Below are positions 6,626-20,544 of a stretch of 33,637 bases of DNA, one piece after another. The notes under the pieces are model-generated. The model worked only from the letters and a program-made list of their open reading frames with translations, searched no databases and was not told the DNA's origin. Source of the DNA: Candidatus Sherwoodlollariibacterium unditelluris. Its GTDB lineage: Bacteria > Omnitrophota > Gorgyraeia > Gygaellales > Profunditerraquicolaceae. How positions within the stretch are numbered: position 1 is the stretch's first letter; every line of letters begins with the position of its first letter. The stretch is taken from positions 1 through 33,637 of the forward strand of contig PCRK01000026.1 in the NCBI GenBank assembly GCA_002771995.1. Direction: 5' to 3'. A program made the position numbers and the translations under genes.

Positions 6626-8176
6626 TTAGCGCCTATCTAAACTCCTATATTGCACTGCTTCCGAGATATGTTCTGCTAGTATCGTCTCACTCCCAGCCAA
6701 ATCTGCGATGGTCCGAGCGATCTTTAAAATTTTATCATAAGCCCTTGCCGATAAGCCCAATTCGGTCAAGGCAAGGCGCAACAAATCTTTTGCCTCGTTT
6801 CCTAAGGCGCAGTATTTCTTAATAAGTTTACCATTCATCTGGGCGTTGTAGAAGATACCCTTGTTTTTTCCGCCATAGGCGGATCTACCTTCGGCGGAAA
6901 AGCGTTCCCTTTGTACGGAGCGGGCTTTTTCGATCCTGGCTTTTATTGCTACGGACGCCTCTGCTTCCTTTATCTCAACCAACTCCTTATATTTAACCCT
7001 CGGCAATTCAATATGAATATCAATCCTGTCTAATAGCGGCCCGGAGATTTTTCCTATATAATTATCTATTTTAGTGGTATTGCAATGGCAGGCCTTCCGG
7101 GGGTCGCCAAGATATCCGCAGGGGCAGGGGTTGAAAGCTACAACAAGAATAAAAGAAGCAGGGAAGGTCAGGCTCTTTTTGATACGGCAGATGTTTATCT
7201 TTCCGTCTTCAAGCGGTTGACGCAGGGCCTCTAAGCTTGCGCGTTGAAATTCCGGGAGCTCGTCTAAAAATAATACGCCTTGGTGCGCAAGGCTGATTTC
7301 TCCGGGGATGGGCAATGGCCCGCCTCCGACTAAGGCCACACTTGATATGCTATGATGTGGAGCGCGGAATGGGCGGGTGGAGATTATACCATTTTGGTTA
7401 GTTAGGTTTCCGGTTACTGAATGTATCTTGGTTACTTCTAGCGCTTCTTCTAAAGTTAGTTCAGGCATAATGGTAGGGATTCTTTTGGCAAGCATGGTCT
7501 TGCCGCTCCCCGGAGGCCCGATCATGGCGATATTATGCCCTCCTGCCACAGCTACTTCAATTGCCCTCTTAGCCAGATATTGTCCTTTTACTTCTGAAAA
7601 GTCAATATTATAGTGGTTACTTTCTTGAAATAAGTTCCCTAAGTCTATTTTAAAAGGGGGCATTTGAGGATTATTCAGGAATTCTACAGTTTCTCTGAGG
7701 GTTTTAACCGGGAATACATTAACCCCGGAAACTATCGCTGCTTCTTTGGCGTTCTCCCAAGGGATAATAATATTTCGCCTGCCGCATTTAGCTATTTCCA
7801 TAGCTATAGGTAAAACTCCCCGCCCCGGCCGTAGTATGCCATCCAAGGAAAGCTCGCCTAAAATGAAATAATCGTTTAGCTTTAAGCCGTTAATTTGCTC
7901 GGTAGCGTAAAGTATGCCTAGGGCTATACCTAGGTCAAAGCAAGCGCCCTCTTTTTTTACCCCCGAAGGAGCTAAGCTTACGGTTATCCTTTCTGTCGGC
8001 CAGTTAAACCCTGAGTTCTTAATCGCGGATTTAACTCTTTCCCGGCTCTCTCTGATTGCTGAATCCGGTAAGCCGACCACGTTTATTGCCGGAAGCCCCC
8101 ATGAAACATCCACCTCTATCTCTATAGGATACGCCTCAATACCCTGCAAGCCAAAACTTAAGACTTTTGCGGTCAT
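6626..8176 (-). CDS. comM: ComM/YifB family Mg-chelatase-like AAA+ ATPase
   Basis: VGLPDSAIRESRERV, GELSLDG, GPPGSGKT, PFRAPHH, GEISLAHQGVLFLDE, NPCPCG, SGPLLDRID, ARTIADL. Confidence 0.93.
   Translation of the reverse strand: MTAKVLSFGLQGIEAYPIEIEVDVSWGLPAINVVGLPDSAIRESRERVKSAIKNSGFNWPTERITVSLAPSGVKKEGACFDLGIALGILYATEQINGLKLNDYFILGELSLDGILRPGRGVLPIAMEIAKCGRRNIIIPWENAKEAAIVSGVNVFPVKTLRETVEFLNNPQMPPFKIDLGNLFQESNHYNIDFSEVKGQYLAKRAIEVAVAGGHNIAMIGPPGSGKTMLAKRIPTIMPELTLEEALEVTKIHSVTGNLTNQNGIISTRPFRAPHHSISSVALVGGGPLPIPGEISLAHQGVLFLDELPEFQRASLEALRQPLEDGKINICRIKKSLTFPASFILVVAFNPCPCGYLGDPRKACHCNTTKIDNYIGKISGPLLDRIDIHIELPRVKYKELVEIKEAEASVAIKARIEKARSVQRERFSAEGRSAYGGKNKGIFYNAQMNGKLIKKYCALGNEAKDLLRLALTELGLSARAYDKILKIARTIADLAGSETILAEHISEAVQYRSLDRR
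6869..6898. repeat. 30-bp double-hairpin palindromic element inserted in frame in comM
   Basis: TCCGCC-ATA-GGCGGA-TCTACC-TTC-GGCGGA encodes SAEGRSAYGG on the minus strand. Same family as 2274-2303. Confidence 0.85.
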
Positions 8177-8383
8177 TTTTATCCCCTCCCAATGTTCCCG
8201 CCTCTTGCCCCGCAGAATGCGGGGCGGCGGGATTATACTTGCTTACTTCGCAAGCAAGTATTTCACTAAATCAAAACTTAAGGTGTTCAAGTTCGGGCAG
8301 ATAAGTTATGGAATCCCGCCAACGGCGGGACGACATAACTTATGCCCTCACTTAAATAGACGCAGGAGGAGGTAAAATCTAAC
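8177..8383 (-). promoter_or_regulatory. Structured 5' leader and putative alternative-sigma promoter of comM, homologous to 33417-33540
   Basis: Shared + strand blocks: CCCTCC, TGTTCCCGCC, GGCGGGAT, AAGTTCGGGCAGATAAGTTATG, CATAACTTATGCCCTCA and TTAAATAGACG-N15-TCTAAC. Confidence 0.65.
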
Positions 8384-8443
8384 TAATAAATTTTAGCTAT
8401 AATGCTTAGCTAGGTAAAATCCCTGCAGTAACCAAGAAAAGAC

Positions 8444-8471
8444 TTGCAATTTAATCCAGGGATTATATAAT
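8444..8471 (+). promoter_or_regulatory. Putative sigma70 promoter, probably giving a leaderless transcript
   Basis: TTGCAA-N16-TATAAT ends 8 nt before ATG 8480; no Shine-Dalgarno sequence. Confidence 0.5.
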
Positions 8472-8479
8472 ATTTTCCT

Positions 8480-9019
8480 ATGAACAATAGATTTCTTAAG
8501 AACATACTAATTCTCCTCTTGGCTAGCGCTTTGGTCTTTGTGGTATTCAGATATATTTCTTATTTAAGAGAAAATATCAGAAGCCTTGAAGGCCAGAAAC
8601 AAAGCCTTGAATACCAGAAACAAAGCCTATCACAGGAGCTAGAGAAAGAAAAGAATACCGTAGAGCAGCTTAAGCTAAAAAATGACAGCCTGAAAGGTAA
8701 CTTAAAGGCTGCTCATAAAAGATTAAATAAGTCATTTTTAGCCTTAAGCCAATCAGAAAAGAGGGCTGAGGAGTTAAGTTCGCAAGCAGACATATTAAAA
8801 GCAGAAAACAACGCCCTTTCAGAAGAGAAGGCTAGGCTTGTAGGGGATAATGAAGCTTTTAAATCTAGGCTGACTTCTATCCCCGAACTCAAGAAAGCAA
8901 TCCAAGAGTTAAAAAGACAAGCGAGGTTGGAAGGTAATCGGGGTTTCTTGATTAAAAATGGTAAGAGCACATCTGTTGTTAAAGTCAAGATAGAGGTAAC
9001 TCCGGCTTCGGGTAAATAA
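8480..9019 (+). CDS. Membrane-anchored coiled-coil hypothetical protein
   Basis: N-terminal hydrophobic helix followed by heptad-rich sequence; a 21-bp tandem repeat at 8581-8628 encodes SLEGQKQ SLEYQKQ SL. Confidence 0.7.
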   Translation: MNNRFLKNILILLLASALVFVVFRYISYLRENIRSLEGQKQSLEYQKQSLSQELEKEKNTVEQLKLKNDSLKGNLKAAHKRLNKSFLALSQSEKRAEELSSQADILKAENNALSEEKARLVGDNEAFKSRLTSIPELKKAIQELKRQARLEGNRGFLIKNGKSTSVVKVKIEVTPASGK

Positions 9020-9020
9020 T

Positions 9021-9467
9021 ATGAAAGAGATATTTGTTCAGACGGTCCAGAATAAGATTTTTATGACTACGCTCTCGGCTTGGCTTATCGCCCAGATAAT
9101 AAAAGTAACCATAGGTATAATCCGCGAAAAAAGGTTTGATTTCCGCTGGTTTATCGGTACCGGTGGTATGCCTTCATCTCATGTCGCAGGCGCTTCCTGT
9201 TTGGCTGCGGCTATGGGTTTTGAATATGGTTTCAGCAGCCCTTATTTTGCCTTAGCCGCGGCATTTGCCATTGTGGTTATGTTTGATGCTCAGGGCGTGC
9301 GCCGGGCAACCGGAAAACAGGCAGGCATTTTAAATAAAATAACCGAAGATATTTATTGGAAAGGTAGAATTCCCGAAGGCCGGCTGCGTGAACTCATTGG
9401 GCATACCCCGGTTGAGGTTATCGCAGGTTTTATAGTTGGGGTTACCATAGCGGTATTAGCAAGATAA
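9021..9467 (+). CDS. Divergent PAP2 family (DUF212) membrane protein
   Basis: AQIIK, GGMPSSH, VMFDAQGVRR, LRELIGHTPVEV. Confidence 0.9.
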   Translation: MKEIFVQTVQNKIFMTTLSAWLIAQIIKVTIGIIREKRFDFRWFIGTGGMPSSHVAGASCLAAAMGFEYGFSSPYFALAAAFAIVVMFDAQGVRRATGKQAGILNKITEDIYWKGRIPEGRLRELIGHTPVEVIAGFIVGVTIAVLAR

Positions 9468-9560
9468 CACCCGGCCTTATTTGAGAGGCCGGTGTGCGCT
9501 TCTGCGCAACACCCCGCACTTAAAGGAATTGCGCGGGTGTGCACTTATTGTGCTAGGAGG
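9464..9560 (+). repeat. Multi-hairpin intergenic element, related to 4593-4777
   Basis: ATAACACCCGGCCTT...AGGCCGGTGT, TGCGCTTCTGCGCA, CCCGCAC-TTAAAGGAATT-GCGCGGG and GTGCACTTATTGTGC, followed by an AGGAGG Shine-Dalgarno sequence. Confidence 0.7.
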
Positions 9561-9566
9561 ATTTAA

Positions 9567-10385
9567 GTGGTTAAGAAAACTTTAATTATATGGGGCGTTG
9601 TAATATTAACCCTGTTCGTTGCTTTAGCTTTTTTCTTTAAGAAGGATAGCGGTAATAGCGCCTCGCGAAAAGAAGGTAACCCAATTTCTGCTTCAGCGCT
9701 CTTAAATAAAGCAAGGGGCCTAGAGGCCAAGGGAGATTTAGTAAATCTTAAGGATGTATATCAGAAGTTAGTGAATGATTTCCCGAATTCTAATGAGGTA
9801 ATGAATTGGCAGAAAAAAGCCGAGGACATAAATATAAAGCTGCTATTTTCTCCGGCGATAACTGCTAAAAGCGCCCTTTATGAAATTAAACCCGGTGATA
9901 CCCTGGCTAAGATTGCCCGGGAATTTAAAACTACCGTGGATTTAATTAAGAAGAGTAATAATTTAAGCGATGATAGGATTGTTGGGGGTAGGAAGATAAA
10001 GGTTTGGACTGCGCCTTTTAGCATGCTGGTGGATAAATCCCAAAACATATTGATTCTTAAAAGCGATGAAGAGATTATAAGGACTTATATTGTTTCAACG
10101 GGAAAGAATAACTCTACTCCCATAGGTAATTTTAAGATTATCTCTAAGTTGGTCAATCCTGCCTGGTTTAAGTCCGGTACGGTTGTTCCCGCGGGAAGCC
10201 CGGAAAATATTCTGGGGACGCGTTGGATGGGAATTGATTTTCCCGGTTACGGCCTGCACGGAACAACCGATCCCAAGAGCCTTGGTAAACAAGTTACTCA
10301 AGGATGCGTGCGCTTGAGCAATTCTGATGTTGAGGAGCTCTATACTATTGTCCCCATTGGCACAGAAGTAGTTATTGTCGACTAA
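9567..10385 (+). CDS. LysM-domain L,D-transpeptidase (YkuD family)
   Basis: N-terminal membrane anchor; LysM YEIKPGDTLAKIA; catalytic HGT...TQGCVRL. Confidence 0.92.
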   Translation: MVKKTLIIWGVVILTLFVALAFFFKKDSGNSASRKEGNPISASALLNKARGLEAKGDLVNLKDVYQKLVNDFPNSNEVMNWQKKAEDINIKLLFSPAITAKSALYEIKPGDTLAKIAREFKTTVDLIKKSNNLSDDRIVGGRKIKVWTAPFSMLVDKSQNILILKSDEEIIRTYIVSTGKNNSTPIGNFKIISKLVNPAWFKSGTVVPAGSPENILGTRWMGIDFPGYGLHGTTDPKSLGKQVTQGCVRLSNSDVEELYTIVPIGTEVVIVD

Positions 10386-10399
10386 GTGAAGCCACAACC

Positions 10400-10510
10400 C
10401 CCCCATCACTTTCAATATAGCATAGGCTAAATACGAAAGTGATGGGGGATTAATTCGCGCAAATAACTTACGCTGCACTTCGTGCTGCCGTAAGTTATGC
10501 GCTCATTAAA
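10400..10510. repeat. 14-bp inverted repeat (10400-10448) followed by a hairpin-family element (10452-10510)
   Basis: CCCCCATCACTTTC/GAAAGTGATGGGGG; then AATTC-GCGCA-AATAACTTACG...CGTAAGTTA-TGCGC-TCATTAAA. Confidence 0.7.
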
Positions 10511-11458
10511 ATGGCCAGACTTGATTTTGAAAAACCCATTGTTGAGCTTGAGAAGAAAATTCAAGAACTCAAGCATTTTATTTCAGATAAGAAGATCGAT
10601 CTTTCTTCCGAGGTTAAAAAGCTGGAAGATAAGCTTGAGGACTTAAAGAAAGACACCTACACTAATCTTACCCCTTGGCAGATGGTTCAACTTGCCCGGC
10701 ATCCTCAAAGGCCATACACATTAGATTACATAAATATTTTGATGACAGATTTTATGGAACTCCACGGAGATAGGCTTTTCTCCGATGATAAGGCTATTGT
10801 TTCAGGGTTAGCAAGGTTAGATAAGCAGAAGGTTGTGGTTATTGGGCATCAAAAAGGCCGGGATACAAAAGAAAATCTTAAGTGTAATTTCGGCTGCGCT
10901 CATCCGGAGGGTTATCGTAAGGCCTTAAGGATGATGCAGCTGGCCGAAGAATTTAATCTCCCGGTTATAATTTTTATTGATACACCCGGGGCTTATCCGG
11001 GGATAGGAGCGGAAGAGCGCGGGCAGTCTCAGGCAATCGCTACCAATTTAAGAGAGATGGTTTCTATAGCTACTCCGATAATCTCTATAGTCATTGGCGA
11101 GGGCGGATCAGGGGGGGCATTGGGGATAGGGGTTGCGGACCGAGTTTATGTATTAGAAAATTCGTATTATTCAGTTATATCTCCTGAAGGTTGCGCCGCT
11201 ATATTATGGAAAGATGGATCAAAGGCTCCTGAGGCAGCGGCAGCTTTGAAACTAACCGGGGAAGATCTTTTAAGGCTTAAGGTTATTGATGCGGTTATCC
11301 CCGAGCCCTTAGGCGGGGCGCATCGCAATCCTGAAAAGACAGCGCAGAATATAAAAGAAGTTTTGGTTAAAGAGATAAAAGAGCTAAAAAATTTTAAGAA
11401 AGAAGACCTCCTTAAGGCTAGGTATAATAAATTTCGCGGTATGGGAGTTGTGGCATGA
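10511..11458 (+). CDS. accA: Acetyl-CoA carboxylase carboxyltransferase alpha subunit
   Basis: LDFEKPI, ARHPQRP, ELHGDR, PEGYRKA, DTPGAYPG, GEGGSGGAL, YSVISPEGCAAILW. Confidence 0.97.
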   Translation: MARLDFEKPIVELEKKIQELKHFISDKKIDLSSEVKKLEDKLEDLKKDTYTNLTPWQMVQLARHPQRPYTLDYINILMTDFMELHGDRLFSDDKAIVSGLARLDKQKVVVIGHQKGRDTKENLKCNFGCAHPEGYRKALRMMQLAEEFNLPVIIFIDTPGAYPGIGAEERGQSQAIATNLREMVSIATPIISIVIGEGGSGGALGIGVADRVYVLENSYYSVISPEGCAAILWKDGSKAPEAAAALKLTGEDLLRLKVIDAVIPEPLGGAHRNPEKTAQNIKEVLVKEIKELKNFKKEDLLKARYNKFRGMGVVA

Positions 11459-11970
11459 TTGAACAAGAGTTATTACTATTGGGGCTTTTACGCGAAGGCC
11501 CTAAGCATGGCTATGAGATAAAAATTAAAGTTAAGCAGATCCTTTTTTTGTTTGCCGGGATTGAGCTTAAATCCGTATACTATCCCTTAAAAGTATTGGA
11601 ACAAAAAGGCTTGATAGCCAAAAGAATAGCTAAGCTTGGCAGAAGGCCACAGCGCATTGTTTATACCTTGACCGTAAAGGGTAGGAGCCGTTTTGACGAT
11701 CTATTAAGTAAGAGCATTCTACAGCTTAAGCGTCCGCAGTTTAGCCTGGACCTAAGCCTATATTTCATGCATTATTTAAAACCTTCCTCTGCCCGGCGCC
11801 GGGTTCGCGCCAGGCTGCGTATTTTGAATAAGATAGCGTTTGGTTTAACGCAGATGTCTAAGTCTAAGGCAGGTAAGAAACCATTTTCTTTAGCCCGGAT
11901 TCTTGAGCATAATCTTAAAATGCTTCAGGCCGAATCCGATTTCCTCTCTAATTTAATTAAAACCCTATAG
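11455..11970 (+). CDS. PadR-family transcriptional regulator
   Basis: LLGLLREGPKHGYEI, YYPLKVLEQKGLI, VYTLTVKGR; overlaps the accA stop codon (ATGA). Confidence 0.88.
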   Translation: MIEQELLLLGLLREGPKHGYEIKIKVKQILFLFAGIELKSVYYPLKVLEQKGLIAKRIAKLGRRPQRIVYTLTVKGRSRFDDLLSKSILQLKRPQFSLDLSLYFMHYLKPSSARRRVRARLRILNKIAFGLTQMSKSKAGKKPFSLARILEHNLKMLQAESDFLSNLIKTL

Positions 11971-13356: not shown

Positions 13357-13998
13357 ATGAGCGAAATAAACCCCGTTAGAAATACCGAAAAGACAGGAAG
13401 AGGAAATGAAATTTCTAACGGGGTAAATACTCCTTTCCCAAGATTAAAACTAACCGTAACCGGAGTTTTCGGCGAATGTTACCATGGATATAAAATCGGC
13501 GATGAGATAATCTTGGAGGATTTTACGCATGCGCCAAAACATTTTTGTTTAGGCCTTGTCCACGCGCTGTTTCCGGTAATTTATGCCTTAAGTTTTGGGG
13601 CAAAATTCGGCTTTCGCGATAACCAACGTTCGCTTTTAATCACTTGCCCTGACGGAGGTAAATTAGAGTTTAAGGCAGAAATCTTGGATAAAAATGGTAT
13701 TGTAGAGAACCTTTCCAGGGACCCCAGCCATAAATTTAATCCTAAAAAAATGGTTATTGAAGTAGTCCAGTCTAAAGGCAAATGTACATTTGGCTATAAG
13801 GTGGGGGATAAATGGGAAACCACCGGGTTAAAATGTATTCCCGGGTTTTGCGGAGCGGCATTTCATACCGCATTTCCGGCTTTATTCGCCTTGAATTTTG
13901 GGGCTAACTTCTTTTTTATGGATAGCCCTAATTCCATAGATACGGTCACTTGCCCTGACGGCGGGAATATTATATTTAAGATTACGAGAGTGGAATGA
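13357..13998 (+). CDS. Tandem two-domain TIGR04076-like Cys-rich protein
   Basis: Two internal repeats: GECYHGYKIGD...FC...CPDGG and GKCTFGYKVGD...FC...CPDGG. Confidence 0.75.
   Translation: MSEINPVRNTEKTGRGNEISNGVNTPFPRLKLTVTGVFGECYHGYKIGDEIILEDFTHAPKHFCLGLVHALFPVIYALSFGAKFGFRDNQRSLLITCPDGGKLEFKAEILDKNGIVENLSRDPSHKFNPKKMVIEVVQSKGKCTFGYKVGDKWETTGLKCIPGFCGAAFHTAFPALFALNFGANFFFMDSPNSIDTVTCPDGGNIIFKITRVE
13370..13424. repeat. 14-bp terminal inverted repeat element with a 27-nt spacer, translated in frame
   Basis: ACCCCGTTAGAAAT-N27-ATTTCTAACGGGGT; identical arms at 21160-21214. Confidence 0.9.
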
Positions 13999-20407: not shown

Positions 20408-20533
20408 ATCCCTCGCTTAACCACTTGAAAATTTCTACGAAATTTTCTGCGTAAGCTCGGGATAAATTCGCAGACGGCCTCGCGGCCTACAACTTACGTC
20501 ACTATCGTTCCGTAAGTTGTCTGCTCATTTAAA
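20408..20533. repeat. Hairpin (20408-20463) followed by a hairpin-family element (20465-20533)
   Basis: ATCCC...GAAAATTT/AAATTTTC...GGGAT; then AATTC-GCAGAC...CAACTTACG...CGTAAGTT-GTCTGC-TCATTTAAA. Confidence 0.65.
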
Positions 20534-20544
20534 GGAGAGAATAA

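Follow-up and report, generated by a model that had tools for sequence, protein, structure and literature searches.

Genes for DNA uptake are known to be switched in several ways. In Haemophilus and Vibrio, the activator Sxy/TfoX acts together with CRP at sigma-70 promoters of regulons that include comM, comEA, comEC, dprA and radC. Control modules of another kind are the SigR-RsrA and SigH-RshA pairs, which deal with thiol or oxidative stress: the gene of a two-domain sigma factor lies beside that of an anti-sigma factor with an H-x3-C-x2-C motif and no obvious membrane segment, the promoters consist of two boxes with CGTC in the -10 box, and the pair's own operon is one of the targets. Classical promoters of extracytoplasmic function (ECF) sigma factors combine a CGT(C)-type -10 element with an AAC-type -35 element, and ECF autoregulation usually takes place upstream of the sigma gene itself. 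A functional parallel is provided by ComX/SigX of streptococci and SigH of Staphylococcus and Lactobacillus sakei, dedicated sigma factors with a common box before comEA-comEC, dprA, recA and radC-type genes and with control by a pheromone, an adaptor or proteolysis, (PMC7665891, PMC3486894 and PMC3364868; for general ECF background, PMC7826278 and PMC8103513). Here we consider a stretch of 33,637 nucleotides (the window; contig PCRK01000026.1) from Candidatus Sherwoodlollariibacterium unditelluris of the phylum Omnitrophota, in which comM and an open reading frame (ORF) of 255 amino acids (aa), both on the minus strand, are each preceded by a pair of promoter-like boxes and a hairpin leader.

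The boxes and the hairpin are probably two independent elements lying side by side, namely, a target promoter of an ECF sigma factor governing a competence-like regulon, and a dispersed hairpin repeat inserted behind this promoter. We favour this reading because of the conservation, position, orientation and gene content of the box motif and its linkage to a sigma gene, on the one hand, and because of the copy number, covariation, patchiness and insertion status of the repeat, on the other. By analogy, the system would function like the ComX/SigX and SigH competence regulons and would be built like an ECF / ZAS anti-sigma module. It differs from the former in that the candidate sigma factor is of the ECF type and is co-encoded with a zinc-finger anti-sigma factor, and in its host, which is of an uncultured phylum of the diderm type. 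The box sequence is another one, conservation is best at comM, many mobile and defence genes are included, and the sites considered yielded no pilus, comF or ssb gene; the likeness meant is one of function. With SigR-RsrA and SigH-RshA it shares a two-domain sigma gene beside that of an anti-sigma factor with the H-x3-C-x2-C motif and no obvious membrane segment, and two-box promoters with CGTC in the -10 box; of its own operon, the box precedes the anti-sigma gene. Its targets, on the other hand, are genes of DNA uptake and recombination, its predicted promoter is located between the genes of the sigma and anti-sigma factors and not upstream of the sigma gene, and its -35 box is GTTAGATT. Compared to the Sxy/TfoX-CRP regulons, with their overlapping content, the activator would be replaced by a sigma factor that is dedicated to the regulon and reads a two-box promoter of its own.

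In the 1.35-Mb assembly G000 (190 contigs, 41% G+C, 95% complete), the window forms contig C81; the assembly was compared with 41 related genomes, 10 of them from the same genus. In addition, we retrieved 80 comM loci, 57 of the Omnitrophota type (records titled Omnitrophota or Omnitrophica, "uncultured Planctomycetales" or plain "bacterium") and 23 whose titles name other phyla. The first-pass annotation, made from the letters of the window alone, had described GTTAGA-N15-CGTCTATTTAA on the minus strand at 8383-8352 and 33540-33509, and both copies read as described, with unrelated spacers (TTTTACCTCCTCCTG and AAAATGATAAGTTTA). Its account of what follows also holds: behind both boxes there are identical hairpin arms, ..TGAGGGCATAAGTTATG / CATAACTTATCTGCCCGAACTT, around different inner hairpins, and these are followed by ATCCCGCC..GGCGGGAACA, the Shine-Dalgarno sequence GGAGGG and finally AAAATG. 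At comM the leader is longer by about 80 bases, which form another hairpin downstream of the first one and upstream of ATCCCGCC. The start codon of comM is at 8176, that of the 255-aa ORF at 33416. The 516-aa product of the former is ComM/YifB, as had been proposed (TIGR00368, 625 bits; domains Mg_chelatase, ChlI and Mg_chelatase_C).

In the window alone, the boxes are within chance: with up to two mismatches allowed, 3 matches are seen where 1.46 would be expected, and as many as 3 are found in 13 of 100 shuffles. The situation is different at the genome scale. For the consensus of 16 specified bases, GTTAGATT-N13-CGTCTATT (29 bp in total), the genome contains 11 exact sites, 14 at up to one and 19 at up to two mismatches, the respective numbers in three block-shuffled genomes being 0, 0 and 1-2. 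The pattern GTTAGA-N15-CGTCTA occurs 13 times, and only 3 of these occurrences are accompanied by the hairpin. The exact box is present in 29 of the 41 related genomes, including all ten of the same genus with 1-12 sites each, and the reversed control pattern has no match in any of the 41.

The site before comM is the best conserved one. The box was found in 48 of the 80 comM loci, that is, in 48 of the 57 loci of the Omnitrophota type and in none of the 23 from other phyla. It usually begins at -48 from the start codon and has an A-rich tract upstream; GTTAGATT and CGTCTATT are nearly invariant among the 48 sites, and the 13 spacer positions are free. In five relatives without an exact site, comM still has GT(T/G)AGA(T/A)T-N13-CGTCT in all five cases. 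Among 128 distinct exact sites, 87 are followed, 15-24 nt past the box, by a start codon behind a Shine-Dalgarno-like sequence. The box is non-palindromic and strictly oriented, its spacing of 13 nt is fixed, CGTC within the -10 box is invariant, and the sequence after the box is often TTAAG-like. It gives no score as a sigma-70-type promoter. Taken together, position and conservation suggest that the GTTAGA/CGTCTA box is a promoter, and its distribution shows that the exact form belongs to this order or family, while variants of it may serve in lineages further away. Canonical TTGACA/TATAAT-like pairs are visible elsewhere in the genome, for example before recA.

Two other interpretations of the boxes were rejected. 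An RNA hairpin sequestering the Shine-Dalgarno sequence by pairing with the pyrimidine-rich spacer would give a duplex energy of -8.27; shuffling the spacer gives -7.13, and pairing it with the downstream region of another site gives -7.86. The pairing is therefore compositional and not site-specific, and the distant comM sites have no such pyrimidine-rich spacers. An attC/integron origin of GTTAGAT does not agree with the fixed place of the box before comM across genomes, without a paired inverse site.

The first-pass annotation had proposed an alternative sigma factor, and a candidate ECF sigma / anti-sigma pair physically linked to the motif was indeed found on contig C63. A protein of 201 aa matches the NCBIfam model TIGR02937 (sigma70-ECF) over residues 17-191 with 55.5 bits against a cut-off of 42.9. 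The adjoining ORF encodes a putative anti-sigma factor of 233 aa with a weak NCBIfam match to RsrA and no obvious membrane segment, in which H52, C56 and C59 (H-x3-C-x2-C) are invariant in all 24 orthologues. The box overlaps the stop codon of the sigma gene and precedes the start of the anti-sigma gene, and the same junction is retained in 29 of 30 orthologous loci (at most three mismatches). A sigma orthologue was found in 33 of the 41 genomes, two of these matches being weak. The exact box and the sigma gene co-occur in 27 genomes, the box is found without the sigma gene in 2, the sigma gene without the box in 6, and neither in 6, where the genomes are related and hence non-independent; in five of the six genomes with the sigma gene only, a near-exact box precedes comM. 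A model of the sigma / anti-sigma complex scored 0.85, the best of three controls being 0.11; of 80 solved complexes, 58 attain this mark, as do 2 of 110 mismatched pairs, and the runs agree in at least 83% of contacts, with a partner pLDDT (predicted local distance difference test) of 86. The model supports binding of the two proteins, although the pair is a textbook one and the score may reflect its likeness to solved structures.

The remaining sigma-family proteins of the genome are RpoD (523 aa), an RpoD/RpoS-like protein (271 aa) and an ECF-like protein (174 aa), and no sigma-54 was found in it. The 174-aa protein was considered as a reader of the box and rejected, as its distribution shows no association with the box (17, 12, 7 and 5 genomes in the corresponding four classes). 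It is very divergent (TIGR02937, 39.5 bits, below the cut-off); its gene (L119, C134 1108-1632, minus strand) has a canonical TTGACA-type promoter upstream and occurs in 24 of the 41 relatives independently of the box. A "region 4" match on C160 was also discarded, since it belongs to a NarL-type response regulator. From the linkage and co-occurrence of the two, we infer that the 201-aa sigma factor reads the box.

The regulon was compiled from 60 exact sites in 10 relatives (7 genomes in full and three single sites) together with the G000 sites at up to two mismatches; sites at the sigma / anti-sigma junction were excluded from the 60, of which 56 have a downstream ORF by the rule used. In G000, the box heads comM, comEA-comEC (C103, also with a hairpin), spoVG-aroK-dprA (C175) and the anti-sigma gene (C63). 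The other boxed genes encode two Y1_Tnp proteins, two DNA methylases, RhuM, ORF6N and Gp49-like proteins, the 255-aa ORF, a secreted BNR/Sortilin-like protein and a truncated four-helix-bundle-like ORF (named by eye). Clustering of the first downstream ORFs over the whole set yielded Y1_Tnp (n = 12), BNR/Sortilin-like (n = 8), ComM (n = 8), ORF6N (n = 7), ComEA-type HHH_3 (n = 6), RecA (n = 5) and SpoVG (n = 2), with DprA, RadC, shikimate kinase and a second zf-HC2 protein among the singletons; the cluster names were confirmed by Pfam. Counted by genomes, the box precedes comM in 8, comEA(-comEC) as the first gene in 7 including G000, dprA operons in 4, recA in 5 and radC in 1. comEC follows comEA in all five complete loci, and dprA follows (spoVG-)aroK in two relatives and in G000. 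Thus, of the DNA-uptake genes that had been suggested as a check, comM, comEA-comEC and the dprA operon are headed by the box in G000, and recA and radC in relatives, whereas no pilin, comF or ssb gene turned up among the sites covered. Gene content and the linked sigma / anti-sigma pair together support the original view that the two boxes are a promoter for an alternative sigma factor and serve a competence-like regulon.

Several side observations concern these genes. In G000, recA has a canonical TTGACA-N17-TATAAT-like promoter; in five relatives the box lies 91 nt before recA. Y1/IS200-like (RAYT-like) transposases are the commonest single class behind the box (n = 12) and are unlinked to the hairpin repeat; the G000 sites are on C5 (1191-1219) and C38 (774-802), and the loci are L177, L183, L185-L187, L190, L196, L214, L232 and L234. 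The comEA locus (G000, C103 about 13600-13960; L003, L241) is a third promoter-plus-hairpin locus, read in part because of N stretches.

The hairpin behaves in a different way. The first-pass annotation had taken the 5' leader as part of the regulon signal, and this part of it is not supported: the leader is a dispersed repeat that occurs in either orientation, stands by unrelated genes and is absent from most comM leaders. Its main stem, P1, has the layout AAGU / GA.GA loop / GGGC / 2-nt bulge / 10-bp stem / variable apical hairpin, and the arm GGGCATAAGTTATG occurs exactly twice in the window, where both hairpins fold much better than shuffles (z = -5.2 at the 255-aa ORF; the comM value is given in Table 1). 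A covariance model, R1, built from 8 copies of G000 that a loose-pattern search had yielded, finds 23 loci in this genome at E<1e-3, none of them within a long ORF, or about 24 copies if a weak one in the window is counted. Comparison of 26 R1 hits with a crude ORF map showed that 6 of them cover the stop codon of the gene that precedes them; of the 24 best copies, 16 are directed along a neighbouring gene and 8 are antisense, including both extra copies of the window. The genes downstream of the copies are unrelated by eye (comM, the 255-aa ORF, comEA, dxs-like, GH57-like and Skp-like genes, accA).

Pairing in the repeat is well conserved. In a MAFFT alignment of the 8 copies, 99.3% of the cells are paired and 5 of 18 pairs are compensatory, and none of 500 shuffles reaches the covariation score; for 49 copies from 35 sources the respective values are 98.7% and 13 of 18, with an alignment fitted to the model. 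The unpaired GA/GA loop and the 2-nt bulge are conserved among the copies as well. Behind P1 there is a second hairpin, P2, which is variable, and in several copies also a short inverted P1-like hairpin, and composite copies end in an inverted TTAA(G/T)GAG.. / ..CTCATTAA; inverted doublets make up about 12 of 30 loci from the relatives. In four copies (L002, L004 and L005 on C69, C111 and C118, and one on C112), P1-P2 is followed by a near-identical hairpin of about 45 nt (TTAATTCGCCCCGAC...GTCGGGGCTCATTAA), which lies directly upstream of the start of the next gene and resembles the short inverted P1 unit. Rfam gives only chance-level microRNA-like matches at E<=10 on the comM leader and nothing on four other copies.

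The spread of the repeat is patchy. Matches were found in 26 of the 41 relatives, from 0 to 56 per genome, and in five of the ten genomes of the same genus: G001 and G006 (95-96% complete) have none and G007 has 18. Among the 55 comM loci of the Omnitrophota type covered by the hairpin search, 3 have the hairpin. Alignment of the window comM leader with three orthologous leaders (84, 76 and 71% protein identity) reveals an insertion of about 160 nt (about 8191-8352) between CGTCTATT and the Shine-Dalgarno sequence. No clear target-site duplication was seen on comparison of filled and empty comM sites, and no autonomous partner element was found. Among metagenome contigs of four runs over 7000-11500, none spans the comM hairpin and no empty-site form was seen; the contigs end at the hairpins. 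In one joint, 8313 is connected with 10446 on the opposite strand, which is what a repeat would produce, and it adds nothing firm.

Repeats of the REP/REPIN (with Y1/HUH transposases, RAYT), ERIC and Correia types are likewise short extragenic imperfect palindromes present in tens of copies in either orientation; like the repeat considered here, they form inverted doublets, are patchy between close relatives and break short-read assemblies. Unlike REP/REPIN, the present repeat has no link to a Y1 transposase and no established target-site duplication or autonomous partner, and its conserved GA/GA internal loops and fixed 2-nt bulge are unusual compared with both REP/REPIN and miniature inverted-repeat transposable elements (MITEs). 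Mobilisation by RAYT was rejected: R1 matches none of 14 Y1_Tnp loci, G005, G007, G027, G028 and G032 have 9-42 hairpin matches without Y1_Tnp, and G001, G006, G008 and G015 have Y1_Tnp without hairpins. Mobilisation by GIY-YIG proteins was rejected too, as the five GIY-YIG loci of G000 have no R1 match at E<0.1. In kind, the repeat is like REP/REPIN or orphan structured repeats, but it fails the RAYT test. One of the GIY-YIG genes, on C43 (L237, about 1260-1530), is an ORF of about 90 aa bracketed by an inverted repeat of about 20 bp (GATGAATCCTGTTAGACCTC and its complement), a mini-element inserted between two genes and distinct from the hairpin repeat.

How the hairpin is related to the box can be understood in three ways. 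If the hairpin leader were a dedicated cis-regulatory RNA of the regulon, such as a riboswitch, an attenuator or a 5'-terminal stabiliser selected together with the promoter, this would account for the fact that the three G000 copies with the GGGC stem all begin right behind CGTCTATT, that the same juxtaposition is seen in G007 (in the sigma / anti-sigma spacer) and in G020, that P1 would form the very 5' end of the mRNA given a start a few bases past the box, and that the unpaired bases are conserved. Against it, 21 of the 24 G000 copies are located elsewhere, by the unrelated genes named above, with the antisense copies and overlapped stop codons among them; 52 of the 55 comM leaders do without the hairpin, and whole genomes of the same genus keep the promoter and have no hairpin at all; in 30 loci representing the best matches among the relatives, with the 255-aa ORF copy included, the box precedes 2 of 25 hairpin starts; inverted doublets are common, and no Rfam family is matched. 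We therefore consider a dedicated RNA element very unlikely. Alternatively, the box and the hairpin could form one composite mobile cassette, a promoter-carrying MITE copied before both comM and the 255-aa ORF. The two parts are contiguous at three G000 loci with near-identical P1 arms, but the box keeps its place before comM in 48 loci, most of them hairpin-free, the window spacers are unrelated despite the identical arms, hairpin copies elsewhere have no CGTC box upstream, and in the orthologue alignment only the part downstream of CGTCTATT is inserted; a cassette is scarcely credible and is already contradicted by these comparisons. There remain two independent elements. Accordingly, the objection foreseen by the first-pass annotation, that the motif is just a dispersed repeat irrespective of gene orientation or function, applies to the hairpin leader and not to the GTTAGA/CGTCTA boxes.

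Some observations weigh against two independent elements or against the competence and ECF side of this reading. The hairpin abuts the box in 3 of about 24 G000 copies, compared with an estimated 0.3 or so expected, and because this is more often than chance, the box-abutting copies may have a domesticated role. As the repeat starts with TTAAG and the box is often trailed by a TTAAG-like sequence, a target preference would explain the recurrent junction. The inserted leaders leave the ribosome-binding site free, neither window locus has a terminator-like run, and the hairpin may have a secondary role as a 5'-terminal stem-loop. No pilus, comF or ssb gene was found among the 60 exact sites and the G000 sites, with degenerate sites not systematically searched (G000 itself has no Pfam match to SSB), and neither recA (199 nt of upstream sequence, C45 1-210) nor radC has the box in G000. 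The label "competence" is perhaps too narrow, because much of the regulon consists of mobile or defence genes, and a DNA-damage or stress response fits equally well. When the GTDB phylum is sampled evenly, just 9 of the 121 genomes have the exact box, mostly within the family of the window. Pfam Sigma70_r2 and Sigma70_r4 give no match to the 201-aa protein at E<=0.01, and zf-HC2 matches the 233-aa protein with 20.5 bits, just below the cut-off of 22.2. The promoter status of the box is itself argued from its position and conservation.

In the remaining alternative, the boxes are not read by the C63 sigma factor, being either an operator or activator site of some other regulator or a promoter of another sigma factor. 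G028 (94% complete) keeps 6 exact sites with no sigma orthologue detectable even with a profile of 23 sequences, and G009 has a box site and only a weak match to the sigma profile; the sigma gene has no box upstream, the box preceding the anti-sigma gene only; the -35 box has no AAC core and is unlike the classical ECF boxes; and the link between sigma factor and box is drawn from genome comparison. On the other side, an oriented, non-palindromic box with a 13-nt spacing, located 15-24 nt before start codons, retained at the junction of the sigma and anti-sigma genes in 29 of the 30 loci and without a sigma-70-type score, does not look like the site of another regulator, and the other sigma factors are RpoD, its 271-aa relative and the 174-aa protein that does not follow the box, with no sigma-54 found. 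Hence a different reader seems unlikely.

If the boxes are indeed promoters of the C63 sigma factor, and the repeat is an independent insertion, the following mechanism may be proposed. The sigma gene would be transcribed from a different promoter, and its product would be bound by the apparently soluble anti-sigma factor with its zinc finger until freed by a cytoplasmic signal. RNA polymerase with this sigma factor would then start a few bases past CGTCTATT, producing mRNAs with short leaders from about 15-20 promoters, with a conserved core devoted to DNA uptake and recombination: ComEA and ComEC would serve uptake, DprA and RecA would protect and load the incoming single strands, and ComM would act in branch migration. 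The anti-sigma gene, being itself a target, would provide negative feedback, and mobile and defence genes that gained the box (Y1/IS200-like transposases, ORF6N, RhuM, DNA methylases, Gp49-like toxins) would ride along. At three genes, comM, comEA and the 255-aa ORF, the repeat would have entered the stretch that separates the -10 box from the ribosome-binding site, next to a TTAAG-like sequence. Cells would thus be predicted to become competent under this sigma factor. A bolder version, to which we would give a low but real chance, is that competence is switched by a cytoplasmic zinc/thiol-sensing anti-sigma factor and an ECF sigma factor, that mobile genes (Y1 transposase, ORF6N, toxin, methylase) gained the promoter, and that one hairpin subfamily lands, or is kept, at the first transcribed bases, altering the stability or translation of the comM and comEA-comEC mRNAs.

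The features of the window are collected in Table 1. The second boxed gene had been called a tRNA-linked endonuclease-like gene. The tRNA overlap is real, the last 25 or so codons of the 255-aa ORF being antisense to tRNA-Ala(GGC) with tRNA-Leu(CAA) just beyond, and its true product is probably of about 225 aa, the size of its Atlas look-alikes. The endonuclease part is a lead from structure comparison: one cluster among the Atlas neighbours bears the name "LAGLIDADG homing endonuclease domain-containing" (TM 0.82), so that a LAGLIDADG-like domain is possible, while Pfam gives only a weak N-terminal helix-turn-helix match (Terminase_5, 22.5 bits). At the gathering threshold, Rfam finds the two tRNAs and nothing else in the whole window.

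Table 1. Boxes, hairpins and genes of the window. Positions are those of the window; R1 is the covariance model of the hairpin.
Feature	Position	Strand	Evidence or remark
Promoter-like box GTTAGATT-N13-CGTCTATT of comM	8355..8383	-	Exact match to the 16-base consensus
P1 hairpin, comM	8283..8359	-	R1 74.9 bits; -40.8 kcal/mol, z -7.9; 5' end abuts CGTCTATT
Remaining inserted segment, comM	8193..8282	-	Short hairpin, 12-bp hairpin (about 8235-8261), P2 ATCCCGCC..GGCGGGAACA (8193-8233)
Shine-Dalgarno sequence GGGAGGGG of comM	8183..8190	-	Aligns with GGAGG in orthologues
comM, YifB/ComM Mg-chelatase-like AAA+ ATPase, 516 aa	6626..8176	-	TIGR00368, Pfam
Promoter-like box GTTAGAAA-N13-CGTCTATT of the 255-aa ORF	33512..33540	-	2 mismatches to the consensus
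P1 hairpin, 255-aa ORF	33445..33516	-	R1 82.9 bits, best-scoring copy of the genome
P2 hairpin ATCCCGCCGAAGGCGGGAACA, 255-aa ORF	33430..33450	-	Fold
Shine-Dalgarno sequence GGAGGG of the 255-aa ORF	33421..33426	-	Sequence
255-aa ORF	32649..33416	-	3' end overlaps tRNA-Ala (32663-32736, +) in antisense
Further P1 copy	10445..10514	-	R1 63.3 bits; antisense to both + strand flanks (YkuD/LysM gene, accA)
Weak degenerate hairpin copy	20458..20536	-	R1 E = 0.014; antisense to both + strand flanking genes

Another small repeat family is represented in the window at 9465-9570, between the DUF212 (divergent PAP2) and YkuD/LysM genes, by two GC-rich hairpins. It has nine partial copies elsewhere in the genome, and the summed contig depth is about 10 times that of the flanks in four metagenome runs.

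No published description of this promoter, regulon or repeat, and no combination of an ECF-type sigma factor, a competence-type regulon and an Omnitrophota host, was found in the literature searched, supplements being outside its reach. The main text of the phylum-wide study of Omnitrophota genomes (PMC10066038) does not mention competence, comEC, transformation or promoters, and "sigma" occurs there only in the name of a supplier. For annotation, the lesson is that the identical leaders seen here are repeat insertions and not a regulatory RNA, and that such repeats also break assemblies.

Omnitrophota are abundant, uncultured and very small bacteria whose lifestyle is debated. If a conserved promoter ties comM, comEA-comEC, dprA and recA to a single pair of ECF sigma and anti-sigma factors, DNA uptake is predicted to be regulated in the present lineage, with a short list of parts: one sigma factor, one anti-sigma factor and one 29-bp box. 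If this is true, an ECF-type factor would join the few known "competence sigmas", and, on the bolder version, the combination of a zinc/thiol-sensing anti-sigma factor with an ECF sigma factor would represent a control logic not described for competence.

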